Positions 29,641 to 54,739 of a stretch of 64,000 bases of DNA are shown here, one piece after another (the first letter of the stretch is position 1; each line of letters starts with the position of its first letter). The notes below the pieces were generated by a model. It made no database searches. It was not told where the DNA came from and saw nothing but the letters and a program-made list of their open reading frames with translations. The stretch is from a virus. The position numbers were made by a program, and so were the translations under genes. The stretch is from IMG/VR virus record IMGVR_UViG_3300025141_010453, positions 30,013-94,012 of that record; one strand, written 5' to 3'.

Positions 29641-31449
29641 CTAGAATCTTTTCAATTCTCTTACATTAAATGTTCTAACACCATCAATAGTGATTTTTCC
29701 ATAGAACCTATTGTTCACCATTTTCTTAGCGTATCTAGTCATGATACCTTTGATTGGTGTAAAGTTGAATGGATTATACATTGTTGGAGTTAACTGTAAC
29801 GGTACATATGGTGCGTAAACGTATCCAGTATCCAATAAAGATGTTCCTTTATGACCAATTAACACTTGGTTAGCTGGGAAATAAGGGTCTCTATATACAG
29901 TAAATCTACCTGATAATGTTCCTATTTTCTCAATACCCATATTGTACTGGTCTTGGTCTGGCGATGCGTTTGAAACGTGGAAATATTCCAAGTCATCAAA
30001 AATCGCAGAAACTTCTGAAGAACATACAATCCAGTTAGCACCTCCTCTCAATGTAGATTTGTGAATCTGAGCTGATAACTGATTAACCGCAGTAATCAAT
30101 GTTTGATTCCAATCTTTTTGAGTATATGGAGCTTGACCTGCTGTGAAACGTTTCCATCCATTATAATCCCATCTTAAAGTCCATGCTGCACCTTTTCTAA
30201 GGTCTCTCAAGATTTCTCTATCGATTTCAGCTGCAACTTCCTCTGATAATAAAGCTGTTAATTCAGCTTCAGCATCAATGTTGTGGAATGCAGAAACGTC
30301 TTGTGCAAGTTCTGGTGACCACTGAGCTCTTAATTTTCTTTCAGTAACAGAAACTGTAACAGCCTGTAAGTCAAAAGAAACTTCACCCATTTGGTCTTCA
30401 AATTCAAGAGTTGCATATTGTCTCCAAGTTGCTGTAACTGCTTGTGTAGCTGCTGTAGAACCTACATATCCGTCAATTGAACGGTAACTTGTTTCTCCAC
30501 AATCAATACATGCTGGACATGAAGTATCAACCTCTAGATAGATATTTCCTTGTGAGTCACATACATCTGTTCTGTCTACAATACCAAAACCATATTTTTG
30601 TGTAACAACACGGAATAACATTGCGTCACCCACATTATAAAGTCTAGTACCTCCACTTAAAGCGTCGGCAGAATCGTTACAACAGTAGATACCAGCTGTA
30701 TTTGTTAAAGTTAATGAAGCTAAAAACTCTTCACTATCTTGTTCATTTCCATCAGGGCCAGTTAATTTACCTACACCCGCGTTATAAAATCCAGCTAATT
30801 TTACTATTACACTTCTTGACCCTCCATTTGGTATAATACCAATTGTTTCAGAACAAGAAGATAATGCATTTAAAGCGTCGTAATCATTTAACTGATTTCC
30901 GCCCCAAACTACATTTGTAGTTGATGCTGCACTTGATGTCCAACTACCTTTTGAGTAGTCATAAAGACCGTCAGTAGCTTCTAGTGGTGCGTTACCAGCA
31001 TAAAACTCATCATATAATGACATAGTAGCTGCTGATGTTGATGCTCCTGGTGTTGTAGGTACATTATTACCTGCTGGTGCTCCATAAGGTGCGTAATGTG
31101 TTCCACCTGGTTGTGCTCCAATTTTAGGTACAAAGTAGAACAATTTACCAATTGGTAAGTTCATAGCTTGTACAGAAACGATATCGTTTGCCAATAATTT
31201 AGAGAATACTCTCCTAATAATTGGGAAAACAACTGTTTCGAACGAACCTGAATCAGTCGCGCTTGTAGCCTCGTTGATTAGGTTTGTTGCTTGATTTTCA
31301 TATAGTTGAGCTATATTTTCTTTAACATGTCCTTTAAGACCGTCAAGAAAACCAAGACTATTCCATTTGTTTAAGGTATCTTCTTTGATAACTTTAAGGT
31401 GTTTTAACCCAATGTTACCAACCATACCTGATTCTAATAGTGCTCCCAT
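29641..31449 (-). CDS. gp23: Major capsid protein, T4 gp23-like, with a large insertion
   Basis: PIIRRVF..L.ANDIVSVQAM..P.G; RKLRAQWSPELAQD..AFH.IDAEAELT..LSEE...EIDREI; YAPYVPL; F.P.KG.MTRY. Confidence 0.95.
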   Translation of the reverse strand: MGALLESGMVGNIGLKHLKVIKEDTLNKWNSLGFLDGLKGHVKENIAQLYENQATNLINEATSATDSGSFETVVFPIIRRVFSKLLANDIVSVQAMNLPIGKLFYFVPKIGAQPGGTHYAPYGAPAGNNVPTTPGASTSAATMSLYDEFYAGNAPLEATDGLYDYSKGSWTSSAASTTNVVWGGNQLNDYDALNALSSCSETIGIIPNGGSRSVIVKLAGFYNAGVGKLTGPDGNEQDSEEFLASLTLTNTAGIYCCNDSADALSGGTRLYNVGDAMLFRVVTQKYGFGIVDRTDVCDSQGNIYLEVDTSCPACIDCGETSYRSIDGYVGSTAATQAVTATWRQYATLEFEDQMGEVSFDLQAVTVSVTERKLRAQWSPELAQDVSAFHNIDAEAELTALLSEEVAAEIDREILRDLRKGAAWTLRWDYNGWKRFTAGQAPYTQKDWNQTLITAVNQLSAQIHKSTLRGGANWIVCSSEVSAIFDDLEYFHVSNASPDQDQYNMGIEKIGTLSGRFTVYRDPYFPANQVLIGHKGTSLLDTGYVYAPYVPLQLTPTMYNPFNFTPIKGIMTRYAKKMVNNRFYGKITIDGVRTFNVRELKRF

Positions 31450-31475
31450 AATTTTTTTATTTTTTTAAAAAGCGT

Positions 31476-32822
31476 TTATTTTATTTTAGACATTAAGTCT
31501 TTCATCCTACTAAATTGTGGGTTTTCGTAAATTTTTGATTCCAATAATTTACCTCCACTAGTAGGTGATTTAGTAATTTTTTGTTCCACAACCTCAGAAA
31601 TTCTTTTTGTAGGTTTAGCTACATCCTGAGAAAGTTCTTCTTTGATTACCTTATACAACCCTTTTGAAGATTTTAATGACTCGATGTTATCAAATCTCTT
31701 CAAAATGTTGATTTTTTCCCGTTTGGTAGTTGAATGTTCAGTGAATAAACGTGTTACGTAAGCTAAATTTGAATTAAACACAGCCACTTCATTCAGTTTA
31801 TCTTTAAAAGTTGTCAATGCTTTTCTATAATCAGCATTTTTAATTTTTAAAGTTTCTACCTCTTCTTTAAGAAGATTGTAGGACTTTCTAATACGACTTT
31901 CACCAAGATTCCGGTTGTTAGTAATAGCTTTTCTAATACCAGAAGGTTTGTGTTTACCACCAGATTCTCTTCCGAACCCTAAAGTTCTGGAAGCTTCTTT
32001 CATTTCGAAATCAGGCTCCGATTTTCTTTCGTCTCCTTTATTTCCTCCGTACTTCGCACGCTCTTTCATTTCAAAATCAGGTTCAGATTTTCTCTCATCA
32101 CCTTTATTTCCTCCATATTTTGCACGCTCTGTCATTTCAAAATCAGGCTCCGATTTTCTCTCATCACCTTTATTTCCTCCATATTTAGCACGTTCAGTCA
32201 CTTCCTCTTCGGCTACTTCATCACCACTATCATCTTCATCTTCATTATCTTCATCTTCAGAAAGTTCAATCTCATAAACAACTTCTTCATCTTCAGCTAC
32301 TTCAAGTTTGTCCATTTCATTCATGTCTTCGTCTTCTTTAATTGATTTTTTCATTGTTTTTGTTTTTTTACTTTCTTCTAATTTAATGATGTATTCGGCA
32401 TCGGTTGTGGTATCGGTTAACTCGATTTCATCATCATCTTGTTGGATGATAATTCCGTCTTCGTCTCCCATTGCTTTAAACACTTTCAATACTTCAGCAT
32501 CGGATGCTAATGTTAAGTCTAGAGGCGGCAGTTCCATAGTTACTTCATCGTCTTCGGTCTCGTCCTCAATATCAAGTTCAATGTCATCAGGTATAGTTAA
32601 ATCCATATCAAGTTCTTCACCTTCTATTTCATCATCTATATCTAAAACATCAACTTCTTCTTTTTGCTCCTTCAGGTAATCGTTTTCGTTTAACGATTCT
32701 TTTACTAATTCATGAATTTCTTCCTTCATTGTCGAAGAAAGTATTTCTTTTGCATTAGACTTCATAGTTTCTTCCAACTGTTCAGCCTCGAGCAACGCTT
32801 TTTCTAAAATTGATTCACTCAC
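31476..32822 (-). CDS. Prohead core scaffolding protein (gp22-like)
   Basis: Acidic coiled-coil protein between protease and MCP with many L/I-x-E sites; GTG start. Confidence 0.75.
   Translation of the reverse strand: MSESILEKALLEAEQLEETMKSNAKEILSSTMKEEIHELVKESLNENDYLKEQKEEVDVLDIDDEIEGEELDMDLTIPDDIELDIEDETEDDEVTMELPPLDLTLASDAEVLKVFKAMGDEDGIIIQQDDDEIELTDTTTDAEYIIKLEESKKTKTMKKSIKEDEDMNEMDKLEVAEDEEVVYEIELSEDEDNEDEDDSGDEVAEEEVTERAKYGGNKGDERKSEPDFEMTERAKYGGNKGDERKSEPDFEMKERAKYGGNKGDERKSEPDFEMKEASRTLGFGRESGGKHKPSGIRKAITNNRNLGESRIRKSYNLLKEEVETLKIKNADYRKALTTFKDKLNEVAVFNSNLAYVTRLFTEHSTTKREKINILKRFDNIESLKSSKGLYKVIKEELSQDVAKPTKRISEVVEQKITKSPTSGGKLLESKIYENPQFSRMKDLMSKIK
31995..32192 (-). repeat. 3 x 66-bp coding tandem repeat (RAKYGGNKGDERKSEPDFEM[T/K]E)
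   Basis: Units at 32127-32192, 32061-32126 and 31995-32060; differences almost all synonymous. Confidence 0.95.
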
Positions 32823-32850
32823 GTTTTATTTTTTTTAAAAGTTTATTAAT

Positions 32851-32890
32851 AAACCATCCTGCATAAAGCAAATGGTTTTATTATAAATAT
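32851..32890 (-). promoter_or_regulatory. Late motif plus 5'-UTR hairpin of the scaffold-MCP operon
   Basis: ATATTTATA at 32882-32890; AAACCAT-t-TGC-tttat-GCA-gg-ATGGTTT at 32851-32878. Confidence 0.55.
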
Positions 32891-32937
32891 ATTGGTAATG
32901 TAAAAAATCCCCACTTAGAGGGTTTTTAATAGGGAAA

Positions 32938-33630
32938 TTATCTATTTAGGAAATTATCTAATTTAGACATCATGGATAATGATTTATTTAATCCTTCAGA
33001 ATTTGAGGATTCTACTACTTCGGTTGGTTCATCCACGCTGTCAGCAGTTTCATCTTCTTTAAATAAATAAGAGCCTGGAGTTGATGGTGAAGAGACCAAA
33101 TCAAAACATATTAATTCAAAATCATCTTGTACTTCATTATGTTCTCCATTTTTAGTTAAAGACCCAACACCTCTCGAAGAAATCCCTAAAGTAACTCCTT
33201 GTCTAAGAAGATTAGCAGCCATATCTCCTACACAAGAGATAACTCCTTCTCTTAAGTAAGCTGGTGAAGTTAATAATTTTAATTTACCTATTAATCTATT
33301 ACCTTCCCACCATGTTTCCGTAATAATATGAGAAGCTCTATCAAGGTCTATTAATGAAGATTCTGGGTGATTTAATTCTGAAATAGCACCACCTTTTTTA
33401 ATGACTTCTTGGTATCTATCATTCTCTCTTCTTAAAATCTTTTCAGGATAAATTCTGCCGTTTCTATTTGGGGTATCGTATTTCTGTAAAATAGCATTCA
33501 TATAAATTTCTCCACCAAAATCATCTTTTGCCATTTCTCTCAACATATTGGTGTTGTCATCTGGTTTTATATGCCCATCATGTTCTACTAATATTCCATG
33601 ACCTATCTCTCTAGCTTCTAATACTCTCAT
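32938..33630 (-). CDS. gp21: Prohead core protease (gp21-like)
   Basis: NRNGRIYP, ELNHP, GISSRGVGS, DLVSSPSTPG. Confidence 0.92.
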   Translation of the reverse strand: MRVLEAREIGHGILVEHDGHIKPDDNTNMLREMAKDDFGGEIYMNAILQKYDTPNRNGRIYPEKILRRENDRYQEVIKKGGAISELNHPESSLIDLDRASHIITETWWEGNRLIGKLKLLTSPAYLREGVISCVGDMAANLLRQGVTLGISSRGVGSLTKNGEHNEVQDDFELICFDLVSSPSTPGSYLFKEDETADSVDEPTEVVESSNSEGLNKSLSMMSKLDNFLNR

Positions 33631-33676
33631 AATGTTCTTTTTTAATAAATAGTGGATATAAATAAAAAAACGAAGG

Positions 33677-34114
33677 TTATTTTTTAGATTTATGAAATTT
33701 AAATACCTTAGAGGTTAGTAATGTTTTGTTTATAATTTTATCTGTAATTTGATTAATTGATTCGGATATAGAAGGCACTTTAATATCTTTATATTTTAAC
33801 TCTTTAAAGAATAATGTTACCTCACATTTTAAAAAACTTCTTTTACCTTTTTTTATGCCGCTTGCTCTTAAATCTAAATCTACAATAGTTTTGTCCTTAA
33901 AGGGTGTAGTAATTAACTCATTATGGACTACATGTTTTATCTCTCCTTTAACTTTTTTTATGGGTTTTTCCCAATTAAGTGCATCTTCAAGTGGTTCTGC
34001 CCAACTTGATAGGTTTAAGTATACGGATTTTAAAGACGACACATCGACAGTACCATAAGATGTTTTAAATACATCAGAAATTTTAGTATTTATTTCTCTG
34101 CCTTGCTTTATCAT
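33677..34114 (-). CDS. Hypothetical protein in the head module
   Basis: Located between portal and protease genes. Confidence 0.6.
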   Translation of the reverse strand: MIKQGREINTKISDVFKTSYGTVDVSSLKSVYLNLSSWAEPLEDALNWEKPIKKVKGEIKHVVHNELITTPFKDKTIVDLDLRASGIKKGKRSFLKCEVTLFFKELKYKDIKVPSISESINQITDKIINKTLLTSKVFKFHKSKK

Positions 34115-34155
34115 GTTAATTATTTTTTATAATTAAATATAAAAAATAGCTACAT

Positions 34156-34896
34156 TTAGTTCAAGTCCTCTAGGAGGCTCCTAACCCTAATATATGATTT
34201 TTTGGTGGAATTTAATCCTTTTATTTCATTTTTTACTTCAACTAATCTAGCTGAAAGACTATCATCTTTTGACTCTTTTAATAAAAAATTAATTTTATTT
34301 AATGTAACTTCTTTAACATTATTAAATTCGTTATTTAAGATGTCTTCTGTCATTAATAAAGTATTCTTTAGGATATTTTGTTGATTTTCTGTTAATGATT
34401 TATTATAAGCTTCTCCATATTTCTTAGATATTACATGAGAAAGTATCTTTGGGTTTTTAATTTTACCTGATGGTTTTTTAGTTTTTAACATATTTTCACT
34501 TAGAAACTTTTTTGATTTACTTACATTTTCTAAATTTGTGATACTGTCATTGAATACTATATTATCTATATTTTCATATATTTTATTAGATTTTTTACCG
34601 CATAATTCTTTTCTGTCAGATATAATCTTATTAATAATAGGAAGTACTTTGGTTAATTTGTTTTTATTAGTTCTTAGATAATTTATAGACTCATTGATGT
34701 ATTCTGTGGCTTCTTCTTGATTATCCACATAATTACTTTCTATTTCATTATATAAAGTAAAAAATTCTCTTAATACTTTAGAATACTTCATAGAACCCAT
34801 AATAACAGATAAATTCTTTTTAAACTTACTGCTATCTCTAAATGAATTCTCTAAAATACTGTCTATATTATTTTTATAGTGGCCGAAACTTTTCAT
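34156..34896 (-). CDS. Hypothetical head-assembly protein
   Basis: Between portal and protease; ILE/INE/LTE/LKE sites; late motif at 34911-34918. Confidence 0.6.
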   Translation of the reverse strand: MKSFGHYKNNIDSILENSFRDSSKFKKNLSVIMGSMKYSKVLREFFTLYNEIESNYVDNQEEATEYINESINYLRTNKNKLTKVLPIINKIISDRKELCGKKSNKIYENIDNIVFNDSITNLENVSKSKKFLSENMLKTKKPSGKIKNPKILSHVISKKYGEAYNKSLTENQQNILKNTLLMTEDILNNEFNNVKEVTLNKINFLLKESKDDSLSARLVEVKNEIKGLNSTKKSYIRVRSLLEDLN

Positions 34897-34920
34897 AAAT
34901 GTATTTTATAATAAATATAG

Positions 34921-36759
34921 TTAATCTTCTAATAATGACTCTACTTCTTCATTTATAGTTTCAATATTATTTTTAGTTTTATTAACTGCCTCATCTAAGC
35001 CATCTATTGACAATCCCTTTTTTTCCATTAATAATGGTAAACCTTTTTCTTTATTAAATTCTTCAGCTGCTGGTACTGGTTCTGTAACTTCTTCACCCGC
35101 TCCTGGTGCTTCTTCTTCAGGGCCACCCATATCAAATGCTGGTTCAGCTTCACTACCAGCGTCTAAACCTGGTTCTTCACCAGGTGTTTCCCCTGTATCG
35201 CCCCCTTCTGCTGTTGGTGGTTCACCATATAATTTATCTACTGTGTTGAATAGTCCTGTTTTCTTAATAACTTCTTTGGTGGTTTCTAACTCACCAGCTA
35301 AAGCTTTTTCAAATCGCTGTTGTTGTAAATCTAATTTAATTTCTTCATCACTCATACCTAATATAAACTTCTTAGCCCACGTAGCTGAAACAGGAGCAAT
35401 CCCACTTCCTGGGTCCCCCACTGCATCTTTATAAAGAGTGATTTTAGTTTGCCATTGTTCAAGTTTTAATAACTCTGCTTGAGTTGATGGATTTGTTAGT
35501 CCTAAAGAAAAATTTTCTAATTCGTCTTCAAACCCTAACACATATAAATGGATAATAGCTATTTTATTTAATTCTTGTACTATAGCTTTTTGGATTCGAT
35601 TTATTGTTCGGGCAAATCTAATATCTAATAATGCTAGATTTTTACCTTCCCCTACTACTTCTTCAAAACCTAAAAATGCTTTAGGTATTCTAAGAGCTGC
35701 AAGTAATTTTTTCTGTATATATTCTATATCCGCTATTTCACTCAAATTAGTAGCTCCAGGTAAAGTATCTATAGGACTTGCTGCTGCCGGGTCTCTTACG
35801 GGAATAAAATAATCTTGGTCTACTGCCATCTGATTCATTCTTAAATCAACATTACCATTCTGTGGGTCTACTACTGGGTCCCTTTTAAATTTATTTGCTA
35901 CTTTTTGGATATAAGCTTCCACATCTTTATCATCCATATTTCCAACAAATACTTTAAATACTCTTCTTTCTGGTGCTCTAGAGGTTCTATATACTAGCAT
36001 AGCGTCTTCCGCTAAAAGTAATTGTTTCCAAATTCTTCTACACTTCTCTAACATAGAAGTACCATAAGGCAATCTTCTATCATCACCTAATAATCTGAAA
36101 TGAGCAATTTCCCATGAATTAAATTTAAGTTCTTTTTCTCTCCATTTAAATTCTACTTGATGAGCCTTTGGGTCATCATTACTTATTTGATTTAAATAGC
36201 TGTGACCCTCACTTCTTTCCATTTCCAAATTTGGCAGTTGATTACACCCTATAATTCCTTTTTCTGGGTCAATTTTAAGATACACAAAATTATCACCATA
36301 TTTACATGTATTACGTATCCACATCGGTAAATTTGTAGTGATATCTAAAACATTATTAAATAAATCACCTAAAATAGATTTAATTCTAGTAGATTCTGAA
36401 TATAAAGTTAATACATAACCTTTTTCAGATGGGGTTGTTGCTTCTTCCGCATATATATCTAATGCTGCTGAAATTTCAGGTGTAAACTCCATAGATTCAT
36501 AATCATAATATGATGCCAATCTTGTTGGTTCATAATATATTGATTTAGTATATAATTCGTTATCTATTTTTTGCCATTGATTGGCTAAGTATAGGGACTG
36601 TTGAATTTGTAATTTTTCCTTTTCAAATTCAGTTTTAGAATCTGTTTTTAAGATATCTTGAGACCCTAATTTAAATTTTTGATACGTAGGTTCAGGTGCT
36701 GTTGGTCCCGCGGGGCCAAATAATTTAGCGAGCCTTTGGTATATTGTTAAGTTTGCCAT
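34921..36759 (-). CDS. gp20: Portal protein (gp20-like)
   Basis: PEISAALDI, EDAMLVYR.SRAPERRVF, DYFIPVR, TLPGA.NL.EI.DI.Y..KL..AL..P. Confidence 0.95.
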   Translation of the reverse strand: MANLTIYQRLAKLFGPAGPTAPEPTYQKFKLGSQDILKTDSKTEFEKEKLQIQQSLYLANQWQKIDNELYTKSIYYEPTRLASYYDYESMEFTPEISAALDIYAEEATTPSEKGYVLTLYSESTRIKSILGDLFNNVLDITTNLPMWIRNTCKYGDNFVYLKIDPEKGIIGCNQLPNLEMERSEGHSYLNQISNDDPKAHQVEFKWREKELKFNSWEIAHFRLLGDDRRLPYGTSMLEKCRRIWKQLLLAEDAMLVYRTSRAPERRVFKVFVGNMDDKDVEAYIQKVANKFKRDPVVDPQNGNVDLRMNQMAVDQDYFIPVRDPAAASPIDTLPGATNLSEIADIEYIQKKLLAALRIPKAFLGFEEVVGEGKNLALLDIRFARTINRIQKAIVQELNKIAIIHLYVLGFEDELENFSLGLTNPSTQAELLKLEQWQTKITLYKDAVGDPGSGIAPVSATWAKKFILGMSDEEIKLDLQQQRFEKALAGELETTKEVIKKTGLFNTVDKLYGEPPTAEGGDTGETPGEEPGLDAGSEAEPAFDMGGPEEEAPGAGEEVTEPVPAAEEFNKEKGLPLLMEKKGLSIDGLDEAVNKTKNNIETINEEVESLLED

Positions 36760-36803
36760 ATTGTTTAATAATACTGATTATATTATAAATAGTAAATTAT
36801 TTC

Positions 36804-38543
36804 CTATCGGAATTTCCCAAATAACCACGCGTTATCTTTATATAATTGTTTCATATCATTATTATGGTTTCCAGGATGGCCAAATATGCCTTGATTCTGT
36901 TGCGGTCTCCTATGTTCTGGTTCCGATGTTGTTATAGTGTCACTAGTAGTCCAACTTTCTAACATGGCTTTTGTTAAATTATCAGCTTTATGTAAATCTG
37001 TAAATGAATGTTCACCAACATATAAAGCCATGGCTAATGCCATAATTAAATCATCATGTTTTCCTTTCATGTGATTTGGTCTACCATTTAGATATACAAA
37101 TGTATGCATTTCATTTAATAACCTTTTAGACCTAACAATAAATTTATGCCTTAAAGCCTCTTCAAAAGAAGAAATTATTTGTACACGTTTATTATTAAAT
37201 GCAATTCCAGGAACTTTAGTAACTGAATTAGGATTATATTTCCACTTATCCGCGGTGTTAGTCCCTTCTACATACAAATCTTTATATCCTAACTCTTGTA
37301 ATTTTCTAGAAGTTGCGACACCCATACCACCAGTTATATCTGTTACCACATATGCATTATACATACTACCCCATTTATATATTATATCAGCTGCTAAATC
37401 TGGGGGTATTTTGCCTAGATATTCTGCAACTTGGCATCTATCATCAAAATCAATTATGACTATTGAAGTGAAATCTTCGGAATCTCCCCTACTTACATCA
37501 CACCCTAAAATATATCTATGACCTTTAATTGGTTTTTCCCATATCCACATTTGATTTCCAACAAACATATTTTCTGGTTCTCTAATATATTCATTTTTTA
37601 TTTTTTCTATTGTCTCAACTGGTACTACATTATCTCCAGAACCTAAGAAAGCACTTTCTAACTCTTGTTGTATTTTTCTTCTATCATATTTAAGTTTTTT
37701 TACCATATTCTCAAACCAAGAAGAACATGGTTTATACCCATTTTGGACTAATTCATCGAATCTATCTAAACGTTTTTCATGCACAAATTCATCCTCATTA
37801 TAATCTTCCATATTTAATAAAAAATGTACAATATCATTTGTCTTAACCCAAAAAATGTCTTTGGTGAACCTAGGGTCCTTTTGCCAATGTAATTCTGATA
37901 TAACAAAGCTGTTAAGACCTTTTACCGCTTGTTCATAGATTTCATAATAAATTTTATCATACCCATTTGGGGTAGATATAACTATAACTTTACCTCCCGT
38001 AGATAGGGATGCCATACACGCTGCCCAAAAATCATCACCAGCTTCAATATACGCTGCTTCATCAAATATTAATGTCGTTGGGGTGTATCCTCTTAAAGCA
38101 TCTACTGAGGTCGCAACAGCTTTTATCTCACAACCATTATTTAATTTAAAATGTTTTTGTGAATCTTTGTCTTTGGAAAATCCTACCTTAATCCAATCGG
38201 GCCATTGATTTAAAAACCCTCTAACTTTATTGGCAAATTCTTGAGCTGTATCTAATTTATTAGCAATTATAAGAACTTTTTCAGGTCGTGTTTTTGAAGC
38301 GAACTGAAGATTCTTAGAAATCCATGCTGCAGTTGCTGTGGATACTCCTGCTTGTCTATACTTTTTTACTATATTATCATTATATTTTTCAAAATTAGTT
38401 AACATCATTTCCTGTTCTGGAAATAATATAAAAGGAACATACCTAGATTGAGTATTGTCGTAAGTTTCTAAATAAGTTTTAATGGCATAATTAGTGTCTT
38501 GTAAGCACTTCGCATATTCCTGTATTAACTCTTGTTTGTCCAT
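36804..38543 (-). CDS. gp17: Terminase large subunit (gp17-like)
   Basis: KYRQAGVST, DEAA, ISTPNG, GCDVSRG..ED, HDDL.MA. Confidence 0.95.
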   Translation of the reverse strand: MDKQELIQEYAKCLQDTNYAIKTYLETYDNTQSRYVPFILFPEQEMMLTNFEKYNDNIVKKYRQAGVSTATAAWISKNLQFASKTRPEKVLIIANKLDTAQEFANKVRGFLNQWPDWIKVGFSKDKDSQKHFKLNNGCEIKAVATSVDALRGYTPTTLIFDEAAYIEAGDDFWAACMASLSTGGKVIVISTPNGYDKIYYEIYEQAVKGLNSFVISELHWQKDPRFTKDIFWVKTNDIVHFLLNMEDYNEDEFVHEKRLDRFDELVQNGYKPCSSWFENMVKKLKYDRRKIQQELESAFLGSGDNVVPVETIEKIKNEYIREPENMFVGNQMWIWEKPIKGHRYILGCDVSRGDSEDFTSIVIIDFDDRCQVAEYLGKIPPDLAADIIYKWGSMYNAYVVTDITGGMGVATSRKLQELGYKDLYVEGTNTADKWKYNPNSVTKVPGIAFNNKRVQIISSFEEALRHKFIVRSKRLLNEMHTFVYLNGRPNHMKGKHDDLIMALAMALYVGEHSFTDLHKADNLTKAMLESWTTSDTITTSEPEHRRPQQNQGIFGHPGNHNNDMKQLYKDNAWLFGKFR

Positions 38544-44421: not shown

Positions 44422-46287
44422 TTACTTTACTTCTTCAAATTCAACATCTGTTGCTTCATTTGAGTTATCCTGAACTGGTTCTTCTGTTTCAGTCTCTTCG
44501 TATAATTTTGTACTGATTTCTTGCCAAGTACTATTAAGTTTCTCGGTTAATTCTTCTACCCCATCCATATCTTCTGACTCACAGACTTCCCTTAACTCTT
44601 TAATATTATTTTCTAATCTAGATTTATCATTATCATCTAGTTTATCACTCATATCCTTAATTTGTTTTTCGGTTTGGAACATTAAAGCGTCTGCTTTATT
44701 TAATTTCTCTACCTTTTCTTTTTTCTTATTGTCTTCTACTGAATTAGCTTCAGCTTCTTTTTTCATTCTATCGATTTCTTCGTCGGATAAACTACTCCCA
44801 GATTCAATTTTAATATTTTGTTGTTTTCCAGTACCCTTATCTAAAGCTTTAACATCAATAATACCATTTGCGTCAATATCAAACGTAACTTCAATCTGTG
44901 GAATTCCTCTTGGTGATGGTGGAATGTCTGTTAACTGAAATCTACCTAATGTTCTATTATCTCCAGCCATTGGTCTTTCTCCTTGTAAAACATGAATATC
45001 TACTGCTGGTTGATTATCTACTGCTGTAGAAAAAACTTGTGATTTAGAAGTAGGTATAGTCGTGTTTGAATCAATTAATTTTGTCATTACTGCTCCCATA
45101 GTTTCAATACCTAAAGAAAGTGGGGTAACGTCTAATAGTAAAACGTCAGTAACGTCTCCTACTAATACACCACCTTGTATTGCTGCTCCCATAGCTACAA
45201 CTTCATCTGGATTTACCCCTTTAGAGGGTTTTTTCTTGAATAGTTTTTCTACTGCTTGTTGTACTATTGGGATTCTCGTTGACCCACCAACTAATAATAT
45301 TTCGTCAATCTCGGTTACTTTTATTCCAGCGTCTTTAATAGCTTTTCTACATGGGGTTAAACTTTTCTTAACTAACTCTTCTACCATTGATTCAAATTTA
45401 GCTCTGGATAGTGTACGTACTAAATGTTTTGGCCCACTTTGGTCTGCTGTAATATAAGGTAAATTTATCTCTGTTGTAGTAGAATTTGAGAGTTCTACTT
45501 TTGCTTTTTCTGCTGATTCTCTTAGTCTTTGTAACGCTGCTGGGTCTTTACTTAAGTCCATACCTTGTTCAGACTTGAATTCTTCAACTAACCAATCAAT
45601 AATTTTCTCATCAAAGTTATCACCACCTAGATGGGTATCACCATTTGTTGATTTAACTTCGAAAACCCCATCACCCAATTCTAATATAGATATATCAAAT
45701 GTACCACCACCTAAGTCATAAACTGCGACAGTCATATCTTTATTTTTCTTATCCATTCCATATGCTAACGCTGCGGCTGTGGGTTCATTAATTATCCTAA
45801 GTACTTTTAGTCCCGCAATTTCTCCAGCTTCTTTTGTAGCCTTTCTTTGTTCGTCATTAAAATATGCTGGAACGGTTATTACAGCTTCCGTTACTTTTGT
45901 TCCTAAATAATCTTCTGCTGTTTTTTTAAGATTTTGTAAAACTACTGCAGAAATTTCTTGTGGAACATATGAGTTATCTCCAACTTTGATTGTGACGATA
46001 TCTTTAGCTCCCTTACTAATACTGTAAGACATTTTTTTAGCTTCCTTACTTATCTCACTAAATTTACTACCTATAAATCTTTTTACAGAATAAATGGTAT
46101 TTTTAGGGTTACTTACCGCTTGTCGTTTTGCTGGGTCACCAACCATTCTATCTCCATTTTTATAGGATACTACAGAAGGGGTGGTTCTTTTACCTTCTGA
46201 ATTAACAATTATTTCGGGAGACCCCGCTTCAACCACCGAAACACACGAATTTGTTGTTCCTAAATCAATTCCAATTACTTTTGTCAT
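44422..46287 (-). CDS. dnaK: Chaperone DnaK (Hsp70)
   Basis: [43 protein letters not shown]-terminal DVEFEEVK. Confidence 0.98.
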
Positions 46288-46467: not shown

Positions 46468-48507
46468 ATGATAGATTTTAGTGCAGATTCAGAAATGGAT
46501 GAAATAAGTGGTCGTAAAGAACCACAGAAACGCCCACCTAGTGAAAGTGGGACCCCTATATTAGATAATTTCTCAAGAGACCTAACTCATTTAGCGTCCT
46601 TAGGTGAATTGGACCCTGTAGTAGGGCGCGATGATGAAGTTAAAAGAATTGTTCAGATATTGGCGAGACGTAAAAAAAATAACCCTGTTTTAATTGGGGA
46701 AGCTGGAGCAGGAAAAACATCAGTAGTCGAAATGTTGGCTACAATGATACATACAGGTGAATGTCCAAGAAAACTTTTAAATAAAAGAATTGTGTTATTA
46801 GAATTATCATCTCTTGTTGCTGGTACCAAATATAGAGGTCAGTTTGAAGAGAGGATGAAAGCAATTATAGATGAATTAAGAGAAAATAAAGATGTTATTA
46901 TTTTTATTGATGAGATTCATACTGTTGTTGGTACTGGAAATTCATCAGGAAATTTAGATGCTGCAAATATCTTTAAACCGCCTTTATCCAGAGGAGAGCT
47001 TCAATGTATTGGTGCCACGACTTTAGATGAATATAGAGAAAAGATTGAGCGAGATGGTGCTTTAGAAAGGCGTTTTCAAAAAGTTACTATTGATGCTCCT
47101 TCATTAGAGGAGACTATAAAAATTCTTAATAGTATAAAATACGTTTATGAGGACCATCATAATGTAATCTATAGTGAAGAATGTATAGAATTATGTGTTA
47201 AATTAGCAGATAGATATATAAATGATAGAGCGTTTCCAGATAAAGCTATAGATGTTATGGATGAGGTGGGGTCAATGGTACAAATAGATATTAAAACACC
47301 AAAATATATAGAAACTCTCAAAAATGATATAAATTCTTTAAAACAAGAAAAAATTTCAGTGGTTAAAAGTCAAAATTATGAGAAAGCAGCAGATTTAAGA
47401 GATGATGAACGTAAATTAACTAAAAAATTAGAAGATTTAACAAAAAAGTGGGACCGCAAACAATCACTCAATAAAATTGAGGTGACTGTGGATAATGTCA
47501 TGTATGTAGTTTCTAAAATCACTAAAATCCCCTTAAGTAGGATGAATCAAAACCAAAAAAAGAATTTATTAAATTTAGATAAGCATTTAAAGAAATCTGT
47601 AATAGGACAAGACGAAGCAATAAACACTATAGTAAAATCAATTAGAAGAAATTCAGTAGGAATTAAAGAATTAAATAAACCTATCGGGTCATTTATTTGT
47701 TTAGGCCCTACTGGTGTAGGAAAAACCCACCTAGCTAAAAAACTAGCAGAACTTATGTTTGGGTCAGAAGAATCTATGATTAGAGTAGATATGTCGGAAT
47801 ATCAAGAAAAACATTCTGTGTCTAGACTAATTGGTTCCCCTCCAGGTTATGTTGGATATAATGAAGGTGGGCAATTTACTGAAAAAGTAAGGCAAAACCC
47901 ATATTCTTTAATTCTTTTTGATGAGATAGAAAAAGGTCATCGTGATATATTTAATATTCTTTTACAAATTCTAGATGATGGTTATGTGACCGATGCATCT
48001 GGAAGAAAAATTAATTTTAAAAATACTTTAATTATGATGACTTCAAATATTGGGGTTAGAAATGCTCAGGATTTTAGTAATGGTTTAGGGTTTACTACTA
48101 AAGCTTCCCAACGAACGGATAAAGAAAGGGTTAGAAGTATAATTTCAAAATCTTTAAAAAACACTTTTAACCCAGAATTTCTAAATAGACTAGATGACAT
48201 CATTATTTTTGAGCCATTAGATAAAGTTGGCATTAAGAAAATCGTAAAAATAGAGTTATCTCACCTAACCGCTAGATTGACGGAAAAAGGTTACACTATT
48301 AAATTTGGTCCCTCTGTTGTAGGCCATATTTGTGTTATTGGTCATGATGATAAGTTTGGTGCTCGTCCACTTAAAAGGGCCATACAATCAGAAGTAGAAG
48401 ATTTTATTGCCGCACAAATACTTAAAAATACAATTAAAGAAAATAACTCTTATACATTGAGTTATAATAAAAATACTGAAAAATTTAAACTAATTGAGAA
48501 ACAATAG
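46468..48507 (+). CDS. clpC: ClpC-type AAA+ unfoldase lacking the Clp N-terminal domain
   Basis: LDPVVGR, RRKKNNP, GEAGAGKT, UVR-like QNYEKAADLRD, GPTGVGKT, GSPPGYVGY, LGF loop, GARPL. Confidence 0.92.
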   Translation: MIDFSADSEMDEISGRKEPQKRPPSESGTPILDNFSRDLTHLASLGELDPVVGRDDEVKRIVQILARRKKNNPVLIGEAGAGKTSVVEMLATMIHTGECPRKLLNKRIVLLELSSLVAGTKYRGQFEERMKAIIDELRENKDVIIFIDEIHTVVGTGNSSGNLDAANIFKPPLSRGELQCIGATTLDEYREKIERDGALERRFQKVTIDAPSLEETIKILNSIKYVYEDHHNVIYSEECIELCVKLADRYINDRAFPDKAIDVMDEVGSMVQIDIKTPKYIETLKNDINSLKQEKISVVKSQNYEKAADLRDDERKLTKKLEDLTKKWDRKQSLNKIEVTVDNVMYVVSKITKIPLSRMNQNQKKNLLNLDKHLKKSVIGQDEAINTIVKSIRRNSVGIKELNKPIGSFICLGPTGVGKTHLAKKLAELMFGSEESMIRVDMSEYQEKHSVSRLIGSPPGYVGYNEGGQFTEKVRQNPYSLILFDEIEKGHRDIFNILLQILDDGYVTDASGRKINFKNTLIMMTSNIGVRNAQDFSNGLGFTTKASQRTDKERVRSIISKSLKNTFNPEFLNRLDDIIIFEPLDKVGIKKIVKIELSHLTARLTEKGYTIKFGPSVVGHICVIGHDDKFGARPLKRAIQSEVEDFIAAQILKNTIKENNSYTLSYNKNTEKFKLIEKQ

Positions 48508-50311: not shown

Positions 50312-50812
50312 ATGAATTTAGAAAAAACACGAAATATAGCAATTAAACTAATGAGACAACACGGTCTTATTACGTATACATTTAAGTGGGATAGAGCTGT
50401 AAGAAGGTTTGGCTCCCATAATGGACGAATGCAAACTATTTCCCTTTCTAGACCTTTAACTCTCCACGAAACTAACAAATGTAGAGTTAAAAATACTATT
50501 TTACATGAAATAGCACATGCTTTAGACCATCAACAACGTGGTTATTCTAATCACGATGCTAACTGGAAAAGAATTGCACGGTCTATCGGGTGTAGTGGTG
50601 AAAGATGTAGTAGTAGTTCAGGTGTAGATAAGTCTAAAATATTAAAATGGGTAGCTACCTGTCCTAGTTGTGAAAGAAAAGTTTACTACGCAAGACAAAA
50701 AGCAAAAGATGTAGCTTGTGGTAAATGTTGTAAAAAACATAATAATAGCAAGTATGCCCCTGAGTATAAATTTAATTGGAAATTAAATAGGTGTGTCGTA
50801 AAATATATATAA
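50312..50812 (+). CDS. SprT-like zinc metalloprotease
   Basis: TILHEIAHA, H...WK..A..IG, CPSC..CGKC. Confidence 0.88.
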   Translation: MNLEKTRNIAIKLMRQHGLITYTFKWDRAVRRFGSHNGRMQTISLSRPLTLHETNKCRVKNTILHEIAHALDHQQRGYSNHDANWKRIARSIGCSGERCSSSSGVDKSKILKWVATCPSCERKVYYARQKAKDVACGKCCKKHNNSKYAPEYKFNWKLNRCVVKYI

Positions 50813-51343: not shown

Positions 51344-52150
51344 GTGAAAGAAAAATTAAAAGAATTATTATCAATACCTACCAGGACTTGGGAAGAAGAT
51401 AGAGTTATTTCCTATTTAATAGAACAATTTGAATTAAAGGGATATAAATATGATATTGATGACTTGGGTAATCTTTATGTTACTAAAGGTATTTCTGATT
51501 ATTATCCTTTAGTTTTAGCTCACACAGATAGTGTGCATGAGATTAAAGAAATGGTTGTAAAGGAAGAATATTTACCTAATGCACAAGGTGAAAATAAATT
51601 AGCACTTAAAGCTTATACTAAAGATGGTAATCTACCTACGGGTATCGGAGGTGATGATAAAGCAGGGGTTTTTATTTGTTTACAATTACTAGAAAAATTT
51701 AATACACTTAAAGCCTTTTTTCCTGTAGCAGAAGAAACTGGTTGTCATGGAAGTAGAGATGCTAAAGAAGAATTTTTTAAAGATGTTGGTTATGCCATTC
51801 AATTTGACTCAACTGAAAATGATACCATGTCTCTTTCACTTATGGGCACTCAATTGTTTGAGGAGAAATCTGAATTTTTTAATAAAACTAAAAATATAAT
51901 TTTAGAACATGGTTTTACCGAGTGGAGACATCATCCGTATACTGATAATATGGTCCTTAAGGAAAAATTTGATTTTGCTTGTTTAAATTTTGCTGCTGGT
52001 TACTATAGGTACCATACTGATAATGAATATGTGATAGTGGAAGATGTAAAAAATTCTATAAATCTAGGGAAAAATGTAATAAAAAAATTAGGTAATTCTT
52101 TTTATAAATTTAAGGCAACTAAAAAAGATTCTTTTGGGTGGTTTGATTAG
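51344..52150 (+). CDS. M28/M20/M42-clan metallopeptidase
   Basis: GNLY, AHTDSV, GGDDKAG, EETGCHGS, YHT..E. Confidence 0.85.
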   Translation: MKEKLKELLSIPTRTWEEDRVISYLIEQFELKGYKYDIDDLGNLYVTKGISDYYPLVLAHTDSVHEIKEMVVKEEYLPNAQGENKLALKAYTKDGNLPTGIGGDDKAGVFICLQLLEKFNTLKAFFPVAEETGCHGSRDAKEEFFKDVGYAIQFDSTENDTMSLSLMGTQLFEEKSEFFNKTKNIILEHGFTEWRHHPYTDNMVLKEKFDFACLNFAAGYYRYHTDNEYVIVEDVKNSINLGKNVIKKLGNSFYKFKATKKDSFGWFD

Positions 52151-52810: not shown

Positions 52811-53011
52811 ATGCCAAAATCCAAAAATAGAAAAAATCATAAGAAAAAAGTTCAAGCACGTAATATGAGAATTCGAGCAGAACAAAAACAAATGGTACAA
52901 CAACTTGATGACCTAAAAGAAAAATACACCAAAGAAATGGCTGATAAAGCTAAAGAATCTTCTGAAGAAGATAGTGGTGATGTACCTTTTACTTTGGGTG
53001 GTGATAAGTAA
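52811..53011 (+). CDS. Small protein with basic N-terminus and acidic C-terminus
   Basis: MPKSKNRKNHKKK; ends 6 nt before the tmRNA. Confidence 0.65.
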   Translation: MPKSKNRKNHKKKVQARNMRIRAEQKQMVQQLDDLKEKYTKEMADKAKESSEEDSGDVPFTLGGDK

Positions 53012-53017
53012 TAATAT

Positions 53018-53428
53018 GGGGGTGACTGGAATTGATTGGCGTTGGTCAATTAATGTCAGCACGTCGAGCCTGAGTTAAGCTCGTAAAATCTGATTCATTT
53101 TTTTAACTGGCAAAACAATTGCTAAGTTGACGACTTTAGGGCTTGTCCGTGAAACGTCAACTGTAGCTATAGCGTAACTAAGTTACGAGATAGCTCCGGT
53201 TCAACTAAAGTAGATTTAAGGTTTGTAGCTTTAGTATAGAACTGTCATTTTATACAAACCAATCCCACTAGTACTGCTTGGGTGGTTAAATACAAGGTAG
53301 TTGAGGTTTCTCTGAGTGTTGTTTATTTTGTAAGAGTTACTTAAGATGTTAAGAATAAACTAAACGTGTAGGATAGATATTTTTTGAAGATGAACAAGAC
53401 GGGGGTTCGATACCCCCCACCTCCACCA
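53018..53428 (+). ncRNA. ssrA: tmRNA (transfer-messenger RNA)
   Basis: 5' GGGGGTG pairs with 3' CACCTCC-ACCA including G3.U70; T-arm GGGGG-TTCGATA-CCCCC; pk1-like CGAGC/GCTCG; TAACT-GGC resume site, tag ORF 53109-53177 with the stop in a hairpin. Confidence 0.93.
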
Positions 53429-53434
53429 AAAGAG

Positions 53435-53460
53435 AAAAGGACCAAAAGGTCCTTTTTTTT
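53435..53460. terminator. Bidirectional intrinsic terminator
   Basis: AAAAGGACC-aaaa-GGTCCTTTTTTTT between the tmRNA and a convergent gene. Confidence 0.85.
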
Positions 53461-54739
53461 ATTTTAATAGTTTCACTAAACCTATGGGTTCTTCTTTAAG
53501 GATATTTATTAGTCCAACTTTTTCTTCGTTTACTGATACTTTTGCTATTTTCCCGTCTACAACTGTGTATTTTATTATATTCATGTCGTCTTTAAGAGCC
53601 TTATTAGTTCTCGCCTCGTCTTCAGGGTATAATAGTGGTGTACCTATTTCAAATTGTAATCTGTAGTTTAGTGTAGATGTTGATGTGTGGTTTTTCAATT
53701 CAGTAATGCCGTCAGTTTCTCCGTTCCTATCAGTTCCATGATATATACTAAATTGTCCTATTATTTCAGATGCGGGATTAAATATAGTTACTCTTTGGAA
53801 TGGGAAGGTATCGTCTTTATCATCATTTTTAGTTTTAAGTTCTGCAACTGCAAGAGCTTTTGCAAAATCGTCCACCAGTTCAGATGGCCAAACACCTGTG
53901 GTGTAAACCCCCTTAGCACTTTTTAGAAATAAGAATCCGTTGCGTTTTTCTATAATCTTCTTGTTTATCGTTTCTATTACTTGTTTGGTGGCAGCAGAAA
54001 TAGATTCAAAGTGACCAGCAGGTAAACTACCATCATTTTTATACTTAATAACTTCATATGGAGCGTCTATTGAATATGGGGCATCGTCTGGGTAACACCC
54101 AAACTTATTATTACAAAAATTATAGTCATTTTTTAAATCAACTCGTATTGAGTACTCACAAGATATCTCTTTAATACCTGTAGGAGGTTTATCGTCAACA
54201 CACTCTCCTAGATTTTTTTTACACCAATAATTGTCGGCCGTAGGGTCTAAACATCCATATATTTCTTCTGGTTCGTCTACTACCTGGTTATTGTTACTAG
54301 GGGTATAACATTGACAACTTCTATTACTCCAGGCCCTAGGTGATACACATGCATCGAATTCCGCTTTTAAGGCTGGGTCAAAAGAAGGGGAGGTATCGTC
54401 TAGTCTTTCAGCACAGGTTGCAGCTTTTAAATATTTACACACATATTTATCCGCTTGAATTAATGCATTTTTTGCATCCTTTGTTGCTTTGTTATCCCAA
54501 TCATTTATGGATGCAGCATCTATATTATGGAAGGCTTTTAGATACCCACATATCTGGGCGTCAGTTAAAAGGGCGGCGAAAGGCTCATCAATTGTACTTA
54601 AAAGCTTACCATTTACTTTTACTCCACTAGGTTCATACACATATGATGCATTATGTGTAAGATTATACTCATACATCGCGATGCCGTCACACTTATCGTT
54701 AGGGTGAACCCCTCTATTTCCACAAGGTAGTAATGCCAT
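53459..54739 (-). CDS. Cys-rich hypothetical (putative virion) protein
   Basis: YGCLDPTADNY motif, many cysteines; last gene of a late operon. Confidence 0.55.
   Translation of the reverse strand: MALLPCGNRGVHPNDKCDGIAMYEYNLTHNASYVYEPSGVKVNGKLLSTIDEPFAALLTDAQICGYLKAFHNIDAASINDWDNKATKDAKNALIQADKYVCKYLKAATCAERLDDTSPSFDPALKAEFDACVSPRAWSNRSCQCYTPSNNNQVVDEPEEIYGCLDPTADNYWCKKNLGECVDDKPPTGIKEISCEYSIRVDLKNDYNFCNNKFGCYPDDAPYSIDAPYEVIKYKNDGSLPAGHFESISAATKQVIETINKKIIEKRNGFLFLKSAKGVYTTGVWPSELVDDFAKALAVAELKTKNDDKDDTFPFQRVTIFNPASEIIGQFSIYHGTDRNGETDGITELKNHTSTSTLNYRLQFEIGTPLLYPEDEARTNKALKDDMNIIKYTVVDGKIAKVSVNEEKVGLINILKEEPIGLVKLLK

Follow-up and report, generated by a model that had tools for sequence, protein, structure and literature searches.

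The window, a stretch of 64,000 nucleotides, is phage DNA that carries a complete tmRNA (ssrA) gene with an unusually long tag template, and we hold with high confidence that this is a real, conserved tmRNA whose long tag is a selected feature. The fuller account that we favor, at a probability of roughly 55%, is that the gene is the working ssrA of a widespread clade of ~300-kb marine phages and that its tag is read as a proteolysis signal.

A complete tmRNA gene in a large phage genome

The only tmRNA that ARAGORN calls in the window is a one-piece molecule of 411 nt at 53018-53428 (+), and the Rfam model RF00023 matches the same interval, 53018-53428, over model positions 1-374 (108.6 bits, E 1.7e-41; the gathering score is 47 bits). 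A preliminary description, made from the letters of the window, had proposed an intact 411-nt tmRNA with alanine identity elements, and this is upheld: the two programs agree, and G3.U70, the discriminator A and the CCA can all be read directly. The elements of the gene, all on the + strand, are as follows.

53018-53428 (+): tmRNA (ssrA) gene; ARAGORN call, full-length RF00023 match, 26 compensatory pairs in 39 relatives
53018-53024 with 53418-53424 (+): acceptor stem GGGGGUG/CACCUCC, with G3.U70 as the third pair; read from the sequence
53064-53097 (+): pseudoknot 1 region; Rfam alignment, columns 55-61/75-81, one pair with a both-sided change
53104-53111 (+): frame-setting UAACU (53104-53108) followed by the resume codon GGC (53109-53111); the Rfam consensus resume codon aligns here
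53109-53177 (+): tag template of 22 codons, GKTIAKLTTLGLVRETSTVAIA, with its stop TAA at 53175-53177 within helix 5; open frame
53121-53123 (+): ARAGORN's alternative resume codon GCT; same frame, 18-residue tag AKLTTLGLVRETSTVAIA
53126-53132 with 53155-53161 (+): hairpin within the tag template, GTTGACG/CGTCAAC; RNAalifold columns 112-117/145-150
53165-53195 (+): helix 5, containing the last tag codons and the stop; columns 154-167/171-185, compensatory changes
53401-53417 (+): T-arm; read from the sequence
53425 (+): discriminator A; read from the sequence
53426-53428 (+): encoded CCA; read from the sequence
53431-53468 (+): intrinsic-terminator-like region directly 3' of the CCA, with its stem-loop and T-run at 53431-53460; read from the sequence

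Phage structural genes (major head protein, head maturation protease, portal and large terminase) occupy 29641-38543 of the window. The source record, a virus contig from IMG/VR, is 94,012 bp long; at a CheckV completeness of ~28%, the whole genome would measure about 300 kb. The record's G+C content is 31.6%, and it has no tRNA-like gene besides the tmRNA. A BLASTN search with the tmRNA against 50,697 phage records gave no match, and a scan for sigma-70-type promoters yielded nothing usable, the consensus probably not being applicable to the host.

A family of tmRNAs with a selected long tag

Relatives were gathered with an exact search for the 28-nt 3' end, which matched 102 contigs from marine metagenomes (Tara Oceans included) and 8 viral ones, with a looser 3' pattern that brought in the distant G006/G007 and G008 contigs, and with a profile search that yielded 82 copies of full length (66 distinct) on viral and marine metagenome contigs. 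Mutual identity among the 66 distinct tmRNAs ranges from 45 to 83%, and the tag frame is open in every one of them, at 21-23 codons and with 41 distinct peptides represented. The long tag is therefore a trait of a phage clade, as had been suspected, and not a one-off, and that of the window is an ordinary member of the family.

The sequence xLGL[VIM][RHK]E forms a core kept by the tags of all 66 relatives, and their hydrophobic end is most often VAVA or VAIA. One group has the window's type, GKT[ILF]AKL[ATS][TIL]LGL[VI][RHY]E.STVA[VI]A, another follows G[DE]LFANLVNEGLLKTEGQEVA[IF]A, and a third is described by G[ND]VLD[TN]M[AT]TLGLV[RH]E.S with an SVAVA, LATA, AVVA or LELV end. In the distant G006/G007 clade the RNA is only ~53% identical and the tag, GNTFAKLSALGLMREEKVAVA, is still kept.

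Selection on the peptide is indicated by synonymous changes, by insertions and deletions in threes and by stops in the other frames. Leu10, Gly11, Val13, Glu15, Thr18 and Val19 are fixed while the codons at these sites vary; length differences between subfamilies amount to whole codons; and of 52 distinct templates, 51 have a stop in one of the two other frames and 52 in the remaining one. The pN/pS of the tag template is 0.15-0.54.

The resume codon

The preliminary description had read a TAACT-GGC resume site followed by 22 codons ending VAIA, and the covariance model agrees, in that the RF00023 alignment puts the consensus resume codon on GGC and not at another position with a short tag. 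ARAGORN starts instead four codons 3' of GGC in the same frame, at GCT (53121), so that the tag would be 18 residues long and the first four codons would be an untranslated spacer. Besides ARAGORN's own call, this reading can appeal to the sequence CAATT immediately before GCT, which likewise has an A four nucleotides 5' of the codon, and to the fact that alanine is the commonest resume codon (GCA in 48 of 81 comparison tmRNAs). We nevertheless consider the shorter tag unlikely, and resumption at GGC with 22 codons very probable, in view of the conservation of the context, its homology with the GENNYALAA type, the E. coli rule, the failures of ARAGORN among relatives, the GAT subfamily and the pattern at codons 2-4.

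The sequence UA-N3 followed directly by GGN is present in 66/66 relatives (TAACT in 54, TAATC in 5, TAAAC in 4, TATAC in 2 and TAGTC in 1), and UAANN-GGY is both conserved and homologous to the resume site of tmRNAs encoding GENNYALAA, which we take to be the Bacteroidota tag. The Bacteroidota-style context remarked on at the outset is indeed common to 16 distinct GENNYALAA-encoding tmRNAs. The GCT codon is replaced by GAT in the GNVLD/GDVLD subfamily, the spacing of the two candidate codons is a constant 12 nt, and codons 2-4, which would fall in the spacer on the shorter reading, undergo synonymous or conservative changes only (CTA/TTA, GTA/GTT, K/R, E/D, I/L/F). In E. coli the tag frame is set four nucleotides past a nearly universal A (PMC2481249), a rule that also favors GGC. 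ARAGORN made no call in 5 of the first 8 relatives, whose Rfam scores were 75-111 bits, and in the remaining 3 it placed the resume codon four codons too far 3'; such misses and late resume codons among the first 8 relatives hold a lesson for annotation. With an encoded length of either 22 or 18 residues, the tag is long on both readings.

Two marine metagenome contigs, L208 and L210, combine the resume context TATAC-GGC with a tag that ends in SLELV.

Length, ends and charge of the tag

The comparison set consisted of 81 other tmRNAs on viral contigs, sharing the generic 3' end, and these encode mostly 10-residue tags of the ANDxxYALAA type together with a few long odd ones. Against such tags the 22 codons of the window amount to about twice the usual length, and the Ala-Ala end is lacking, both as first described. 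Among 65 tags parsed by script the ends are VAVA in 38, VAIA in 12, LATA in 4, VAFA in 3, AVVA in 3, VAVS in 2, LELV in 2 and VTVA in 1, and the L202 tag, read by hand, also ends in VAVA; a canonical Ala-Ala C-terminus of the ClpXP (LAA) type is found in 0 of the 66 family tags, that of the window being VAIA. The two LELV and two VAVS ends indicate that a C-terminal alanine is not obligatory. The layout is conserved: an internal hydrophobic LGL[VIM] is followed by a basic and then an acidic residue, and after a brief polar spacer comes the small hydrophobic end. The window's subfamily carries a net charge of +2 and the sister subfamilies one of -3, so that the initial characterization of the tag as basic and hydrophobic, not acidic, is true of that one subfamily but not of the others.

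Two further ideas about the peptide were rejected. An amphipathic helix is not supported, since the hydrophobic moments do not exceed those obtained after shuffling and the sign of the net charge differs between subfamilies; mimicry of the C-terminus of a phage protein was dropped, as no ORF of the 94-kb record ends alike or holds the core motif.

ARAGORN reads long unusual tags on the viral contigs L068 (28 residues, with the end AELAIAA) and L069 (23 residues, with the end LEGAAA), and L068 neighbors the window's tmRNA family in a small tree. The published 484-kb huge phage LR756508.1 has a 447-nt tmRNA (L230:1501-1947, equivalent to 92434-92880) in which ~38 codons can be read by eye from UAACU-GGC, versus ARAGORN's 8-residue tag, and at 414804-414915 (L232) it has a 112-nt RF00023 match of 58 bits that resembles a lone tRNA-like domain.

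Conserved structure and a hairpin within the template

In 39 diverse family members, RNAalifold finds the acceptor stem and T-arm as well as helix 2, the hairpin of PK1, helix 5 and hairpins further downstream; at 26 pairs, both-sided (compensatory) changes keep the pairing. All 7 pairs of the acceptor stem are invariant in 39/39 sequences, with G-U at the third, and the T arm is invariant too; one-sided or compensatory changes occur in the other elements just listed, where the tertiary pairs of the pseudoknots are not separately counted. The PK1 hairpin (53071-53077 / 53091-53097) stops 11 nt 5' of the resume codon.

The hairpin within the tag template lies outside the standard tmRNA model. 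Its 6-7-bp stem is kept, with different sequences, in all three main tag subfamilies, 4 of 6 pairs have both-sided changes across these subfamilies, and its loop codes for the conserved TLGLVRE. Conservation of the template may thus be partly for the RNA hairpin at 53126-53161 instead of for the peptide, and the covariation of the hairpin also speaks for a broader alternative, in which the tag is not a degron and serves in sequestration, chaperone capture by the nearby DnaK or signalling, or is conserved mostly at the level of the RNA. The adjacency of DnaK fits this alternative, as do the two tags with LELV ends and a hydrophobic LGLV core like the segments bound by Hsp70, a chaperone that binds hydrophobic stretches. 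We nonetheless find it highly improbable. The loop codons change synonymously while the amino acids are fixed, which argues that the peptide is under selection; there is no significant amphipathic signal in the tag; and all well-studied tmRNA tags are degrons (PMC4131195, PMC8403727). That the tag of the window and its relatives is a degron we regard as likely.

Contigs from RNA libraries

Sequence words of the window occur in eight RNA libraries; four of these, from two studies, were compared with it in detail, and they contain contigs with zero differences over 53026-53380. Cover by RNA contigs is limited to bins spanning the gene, sequencing adapters abut 53026 and 53426, and both flanks are uncovered, which in itself is no more than a weak hint. 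Contigs with the sister tags are present in RNA libraries as well. Being assembled contigs, these are unable to prove transcription, exact ends or level, and they give a moderate hint that the tmRNA may be a discrete and abundant transcript. One RNA-library contig runs past the 3' end (53430-53432) into a 5' start like that of another tmRNA, GGGGGTGACTGGATTTGAC, and is probably an assembly join of related tmRNAs.

Neighboring genes and the phage protease set

Upstream of the tmRNA the window encodes a chaperone, an unfoldase and further genes, with the following coordinates.

44422-46287 (-): DnaK (Hsp70); Pfam HSP70, E 7.7e-258
46468-48507 (+): ClpC-type double-AAA+ unfoldase; Pfam AAA, AAA_lid_9, AAA_2 and ClpB_D2-small, with a UVR-like motif
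50312-50812: SprT-like protein, in the same cluster as the tmRNA
51344-52150 (+): peptidase-like gene; PHROG peptidase, E 2.6e-35, with Pfam M28 and M42 below their cut-offs
52811-53011 (+): 66-residue ORF with no family match, stopping 7 nt 5' of the tmRNA

The ClpC homologue has two AAA+ modules and a middle domain, and aligns to residues 156-792 of the 810-residue B. subtilis ClpC with ~24 residues preceding the aligned part; an alignment that begins at residue 156 indicates that the N-domain is missing, and Pfam gives no hit to Clp_N, the adaptor-binding N-domain. At the ClpP-docking position an LGF loop is present, with GLGF opposite YVGF. In related loci that are long enough, the ClpC gene is found 3-11 kb upstream of the tmRNA in 12 of 12, and in the distant G006 clade a ClpC of 60% identity is still located ~3 kb upstream. 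Inside one phage lineage such linkage may be plain synteny, and it is no proof of co-evolution.

DnaK is ~1.1 kb downstream of the tmRNA start in 17 related loci, and the peptidase-like gene is upstream of the tmRNA in 49. In 34 related loci the tmRNA is immediately preceded by a homologue of the 66-residue ORF, whose product has a Lys/Arg-rich N-terminus and an acidic C-terminal half, and no homologue was found in the more distant loci; the idea that the ORF substitutes for SmpB was set aside on this distribution.

ClpP was not found in the window's own 94-kb record. Matches of ~195 bits are present in two related genomes of greater completeness, G003 (93% complete, 297,623 bp) and G001 (70% complete), and in G003 the Ser, His and Asp motifs align to a solved ClpP and the gene is ~200 kb from the tmRNA/ClpC cluster. 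The preliminary description had paired the phage ClpC with a ClpP of the host, an assumption that may not be needed, as more complete relatives encode their own. Searches for SmpB in the 94-kb record and in five related records, one of them 93% complete, found none, and Lon was likewise not found in the related records searched. Each of five records searched has just one AAA_2 gene per genome, which indicates that ClpX is absent.

The ClpP gene of G003 adjoins a complete S-adenosylmethionine synthetase gene (L010:1480-2163 (-) and L010:2175-3326 (-)). A second ClpP-like stretch in G001, at 228124-228543 (L012) near the end of its 231-kb contig, contains one in-frame TAA; either a disrupted gene copy or the proximity of the contig end may account for it.

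Host and distribution

The genomes of 185,579 prokaryote species were scanned for two exact patterns, the tag-end/helix-5 sequence and the 25-nt 3' end, with 0 matches to either. We thus see no host lineage with the same long tag among these genomes as far as exact patterns go, in keeping with the earlier suggestion that the tag is private to phages, and exact matching leaves room for a diverged cellular relative. A recent capture of the gene from a host lineage that has the same tag, and that is unrepresented or unmatched in the collections, would make the tag not phage-private after all. Both the reliance of the cellular scans on exact patterns and the resemblance of the resume context and overall size to the GENNYALAA type are in line with such a capture, but the absence of both patterns from all 185,579 species genomes is not, and family loci with enough flank have phage neighbors (ClpC, DnaK and the peptidase-like gene). 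The family is moreover deep, down to 45% RNA identity, which points to long evolution within phages, and we hold recent capture to be very unlikely.

A small tree, computed without support values, places the family beside the GENNYALAA group. The closest phage records for DnaK and ClpC are from uncultured huge phages, at 48-64% identity, and the search found no cultured relative. Several of these huge-phage genomes, of >634 kb, are predicted by their authors to replicate in Bacteroidetes (PMC7162821), and the same host phylum is therefore likely here. Marine metagenomes (Tara, JGI, ENA) contain >120 homologues of the phage DnaK, 85-99% identical to it and on contigs of up to ~302 kb, which indicates that the phage clade is abundant and widespread in the ocean.

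Predicted mechanism and the reader of the tag

We propose that infected cells would make the RNA and that trimming would leave it with a 5' end like that of a tRNA and a 3' CCA, whereupon host AlaRS would charge it with alanine by way of G3.U70. SmpB and EF-Tu of the host would then bring it to stalled ribosomes, host SmpB being invoked because the phage clade is without its own smpB. Translation would restart at GGC, four nucleotides past the conserved A of UAACU, and the ribosome would append alanine and the 22 encoded residues before normal termination. Charging and ribosome rescue by the phage tmRNA are what we infer. The resulting tag would have two parts, an internal xLGL[VIM][RHK]E and, after a short polar spacer, a small hydrophobic end, usually VA[VI]A; the hydrophobic end could be gripped by an AAA+ unfoldase, with the internal motif conferring specificity.

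As to the reader of this putative degron, ClpC and ClpP of the phage suggest themselves as the likeliest candidate, since their genes travel with the tmRNA, and on this linkage and the precedent of Mycoplasma and its Lon protease we tentatively put the pair forward as a possible one. A stronger version, which we think doubtful, is a private tag-and-destroy pathway orthogonal to the host, in which host ClpXP reads the tag poorly, the phage ClpC-ClpP pair reads it specifically and LGLxRE is the specificity element. If true, the phage would control, during infection, both the removal of truncated proteins and the reuse of their amino acids.

The tag could instead be an ordinary degron for ClpXP, ClpAP, Lon, FtsH or the periplasmic tail-specific protease of the host, with the tmRNA providing extra rescue capacity and the internal motif serving a host adaptor or being just tolerated. 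Most of the tags do end small and hydrophobic with a C-terminal alanine, as cellular tags do, the phage relies on host SmpB, and several host proteases are known to read cellular tmRNA tags (PMC8403727). Set against this, none of the 66 family members has the canonical Ala-Ala C-terminus, related phages encode a ClpC and a ClpP of their own, and the internal motif is more deeply conserved than the remaining RNA, which implies that it needs a reader; we regard an ordinary host-read degron as rather unlikely.

Comparison with known systems

The closest architectural counterpart is the one-piece tmRNA of the GENNYALAA type, which has the same full architecture, alanine identity and Gly resume codon and is 393-399 nt long, compared with 411 nt here; TTAACT followed directly by GGC is found in 8 of 16 distinct examples, and these tmRNAs group with the phage family in the unsupported tree. 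In contrast, the phage tmRNA encodes 22 residues and not 9, has no Ala-Ala end and contains an extra hairpin within the template; overall RNA identity is only ~45%, and the phage gene is in a genome without smpB.

The ssrA tag of E. coli is a two-part signal, with an N-terminal part bound by SspB and an LAA end bound by ClpX. The phage tag is similar by analogy, in its conserved internal part, spacer and small hydrophobic C-terminus, whereas the two sequences are unlike each other, a gene resembling sspB was not identified and the phage end is VA[VI]A and not LAA.

Among phages, tmRNAs are known from the mycobacteriophage Bxz1 group and Bacillus phage G (PMC4131195), have been reported in huge phages (PMC7162821) and are carried by ~2.3% of sequenced phages (PMC9004378); they are also described in marine myophages such as Melnitz. 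The described cases share with ours a complete ssrA in a phage genome, while the Melnitz-type tmRNAs are two-piece and ours is one-piece. Neither clade-specific long tags nor a link with phage ClpC/ClpP is described in the available parts of PMC4131195, PMC9004378 and PMC7162821, and a literature search found no report of clade-specific long phage tags or of their association with Clp genes of phages. As a rule, a phage tmRNA receives an annotation and no further attention; here the tag is a selected peptide of an abundant marine clade, and it travels with a phage chaperone/protease set of DnaK, ClpC and ClpP.

The nearest functional parallel is the 27-residue ssrA tag of Mycoplasma, which is read by Lon and co-evolved with it (Gur and Sauer 2008, as cited in PMC8403727). 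That tag is similarly long for its kind, rich in hydrophobic residues, removed from the ClpXP signal and matched to the available protease, whereas its sequence is unrelated, no phage Lon was found and the candidate reader in our phages is a ClpC-ClpP pair. If a phage protease does read the tag, this would be a natural case of an orthogonal protein-quality-control channel installed by a virus, and it would offer synthetic biology a ready orthogonal pair of degron and protease, comparable to the Mesoplasma tag and its Lon.
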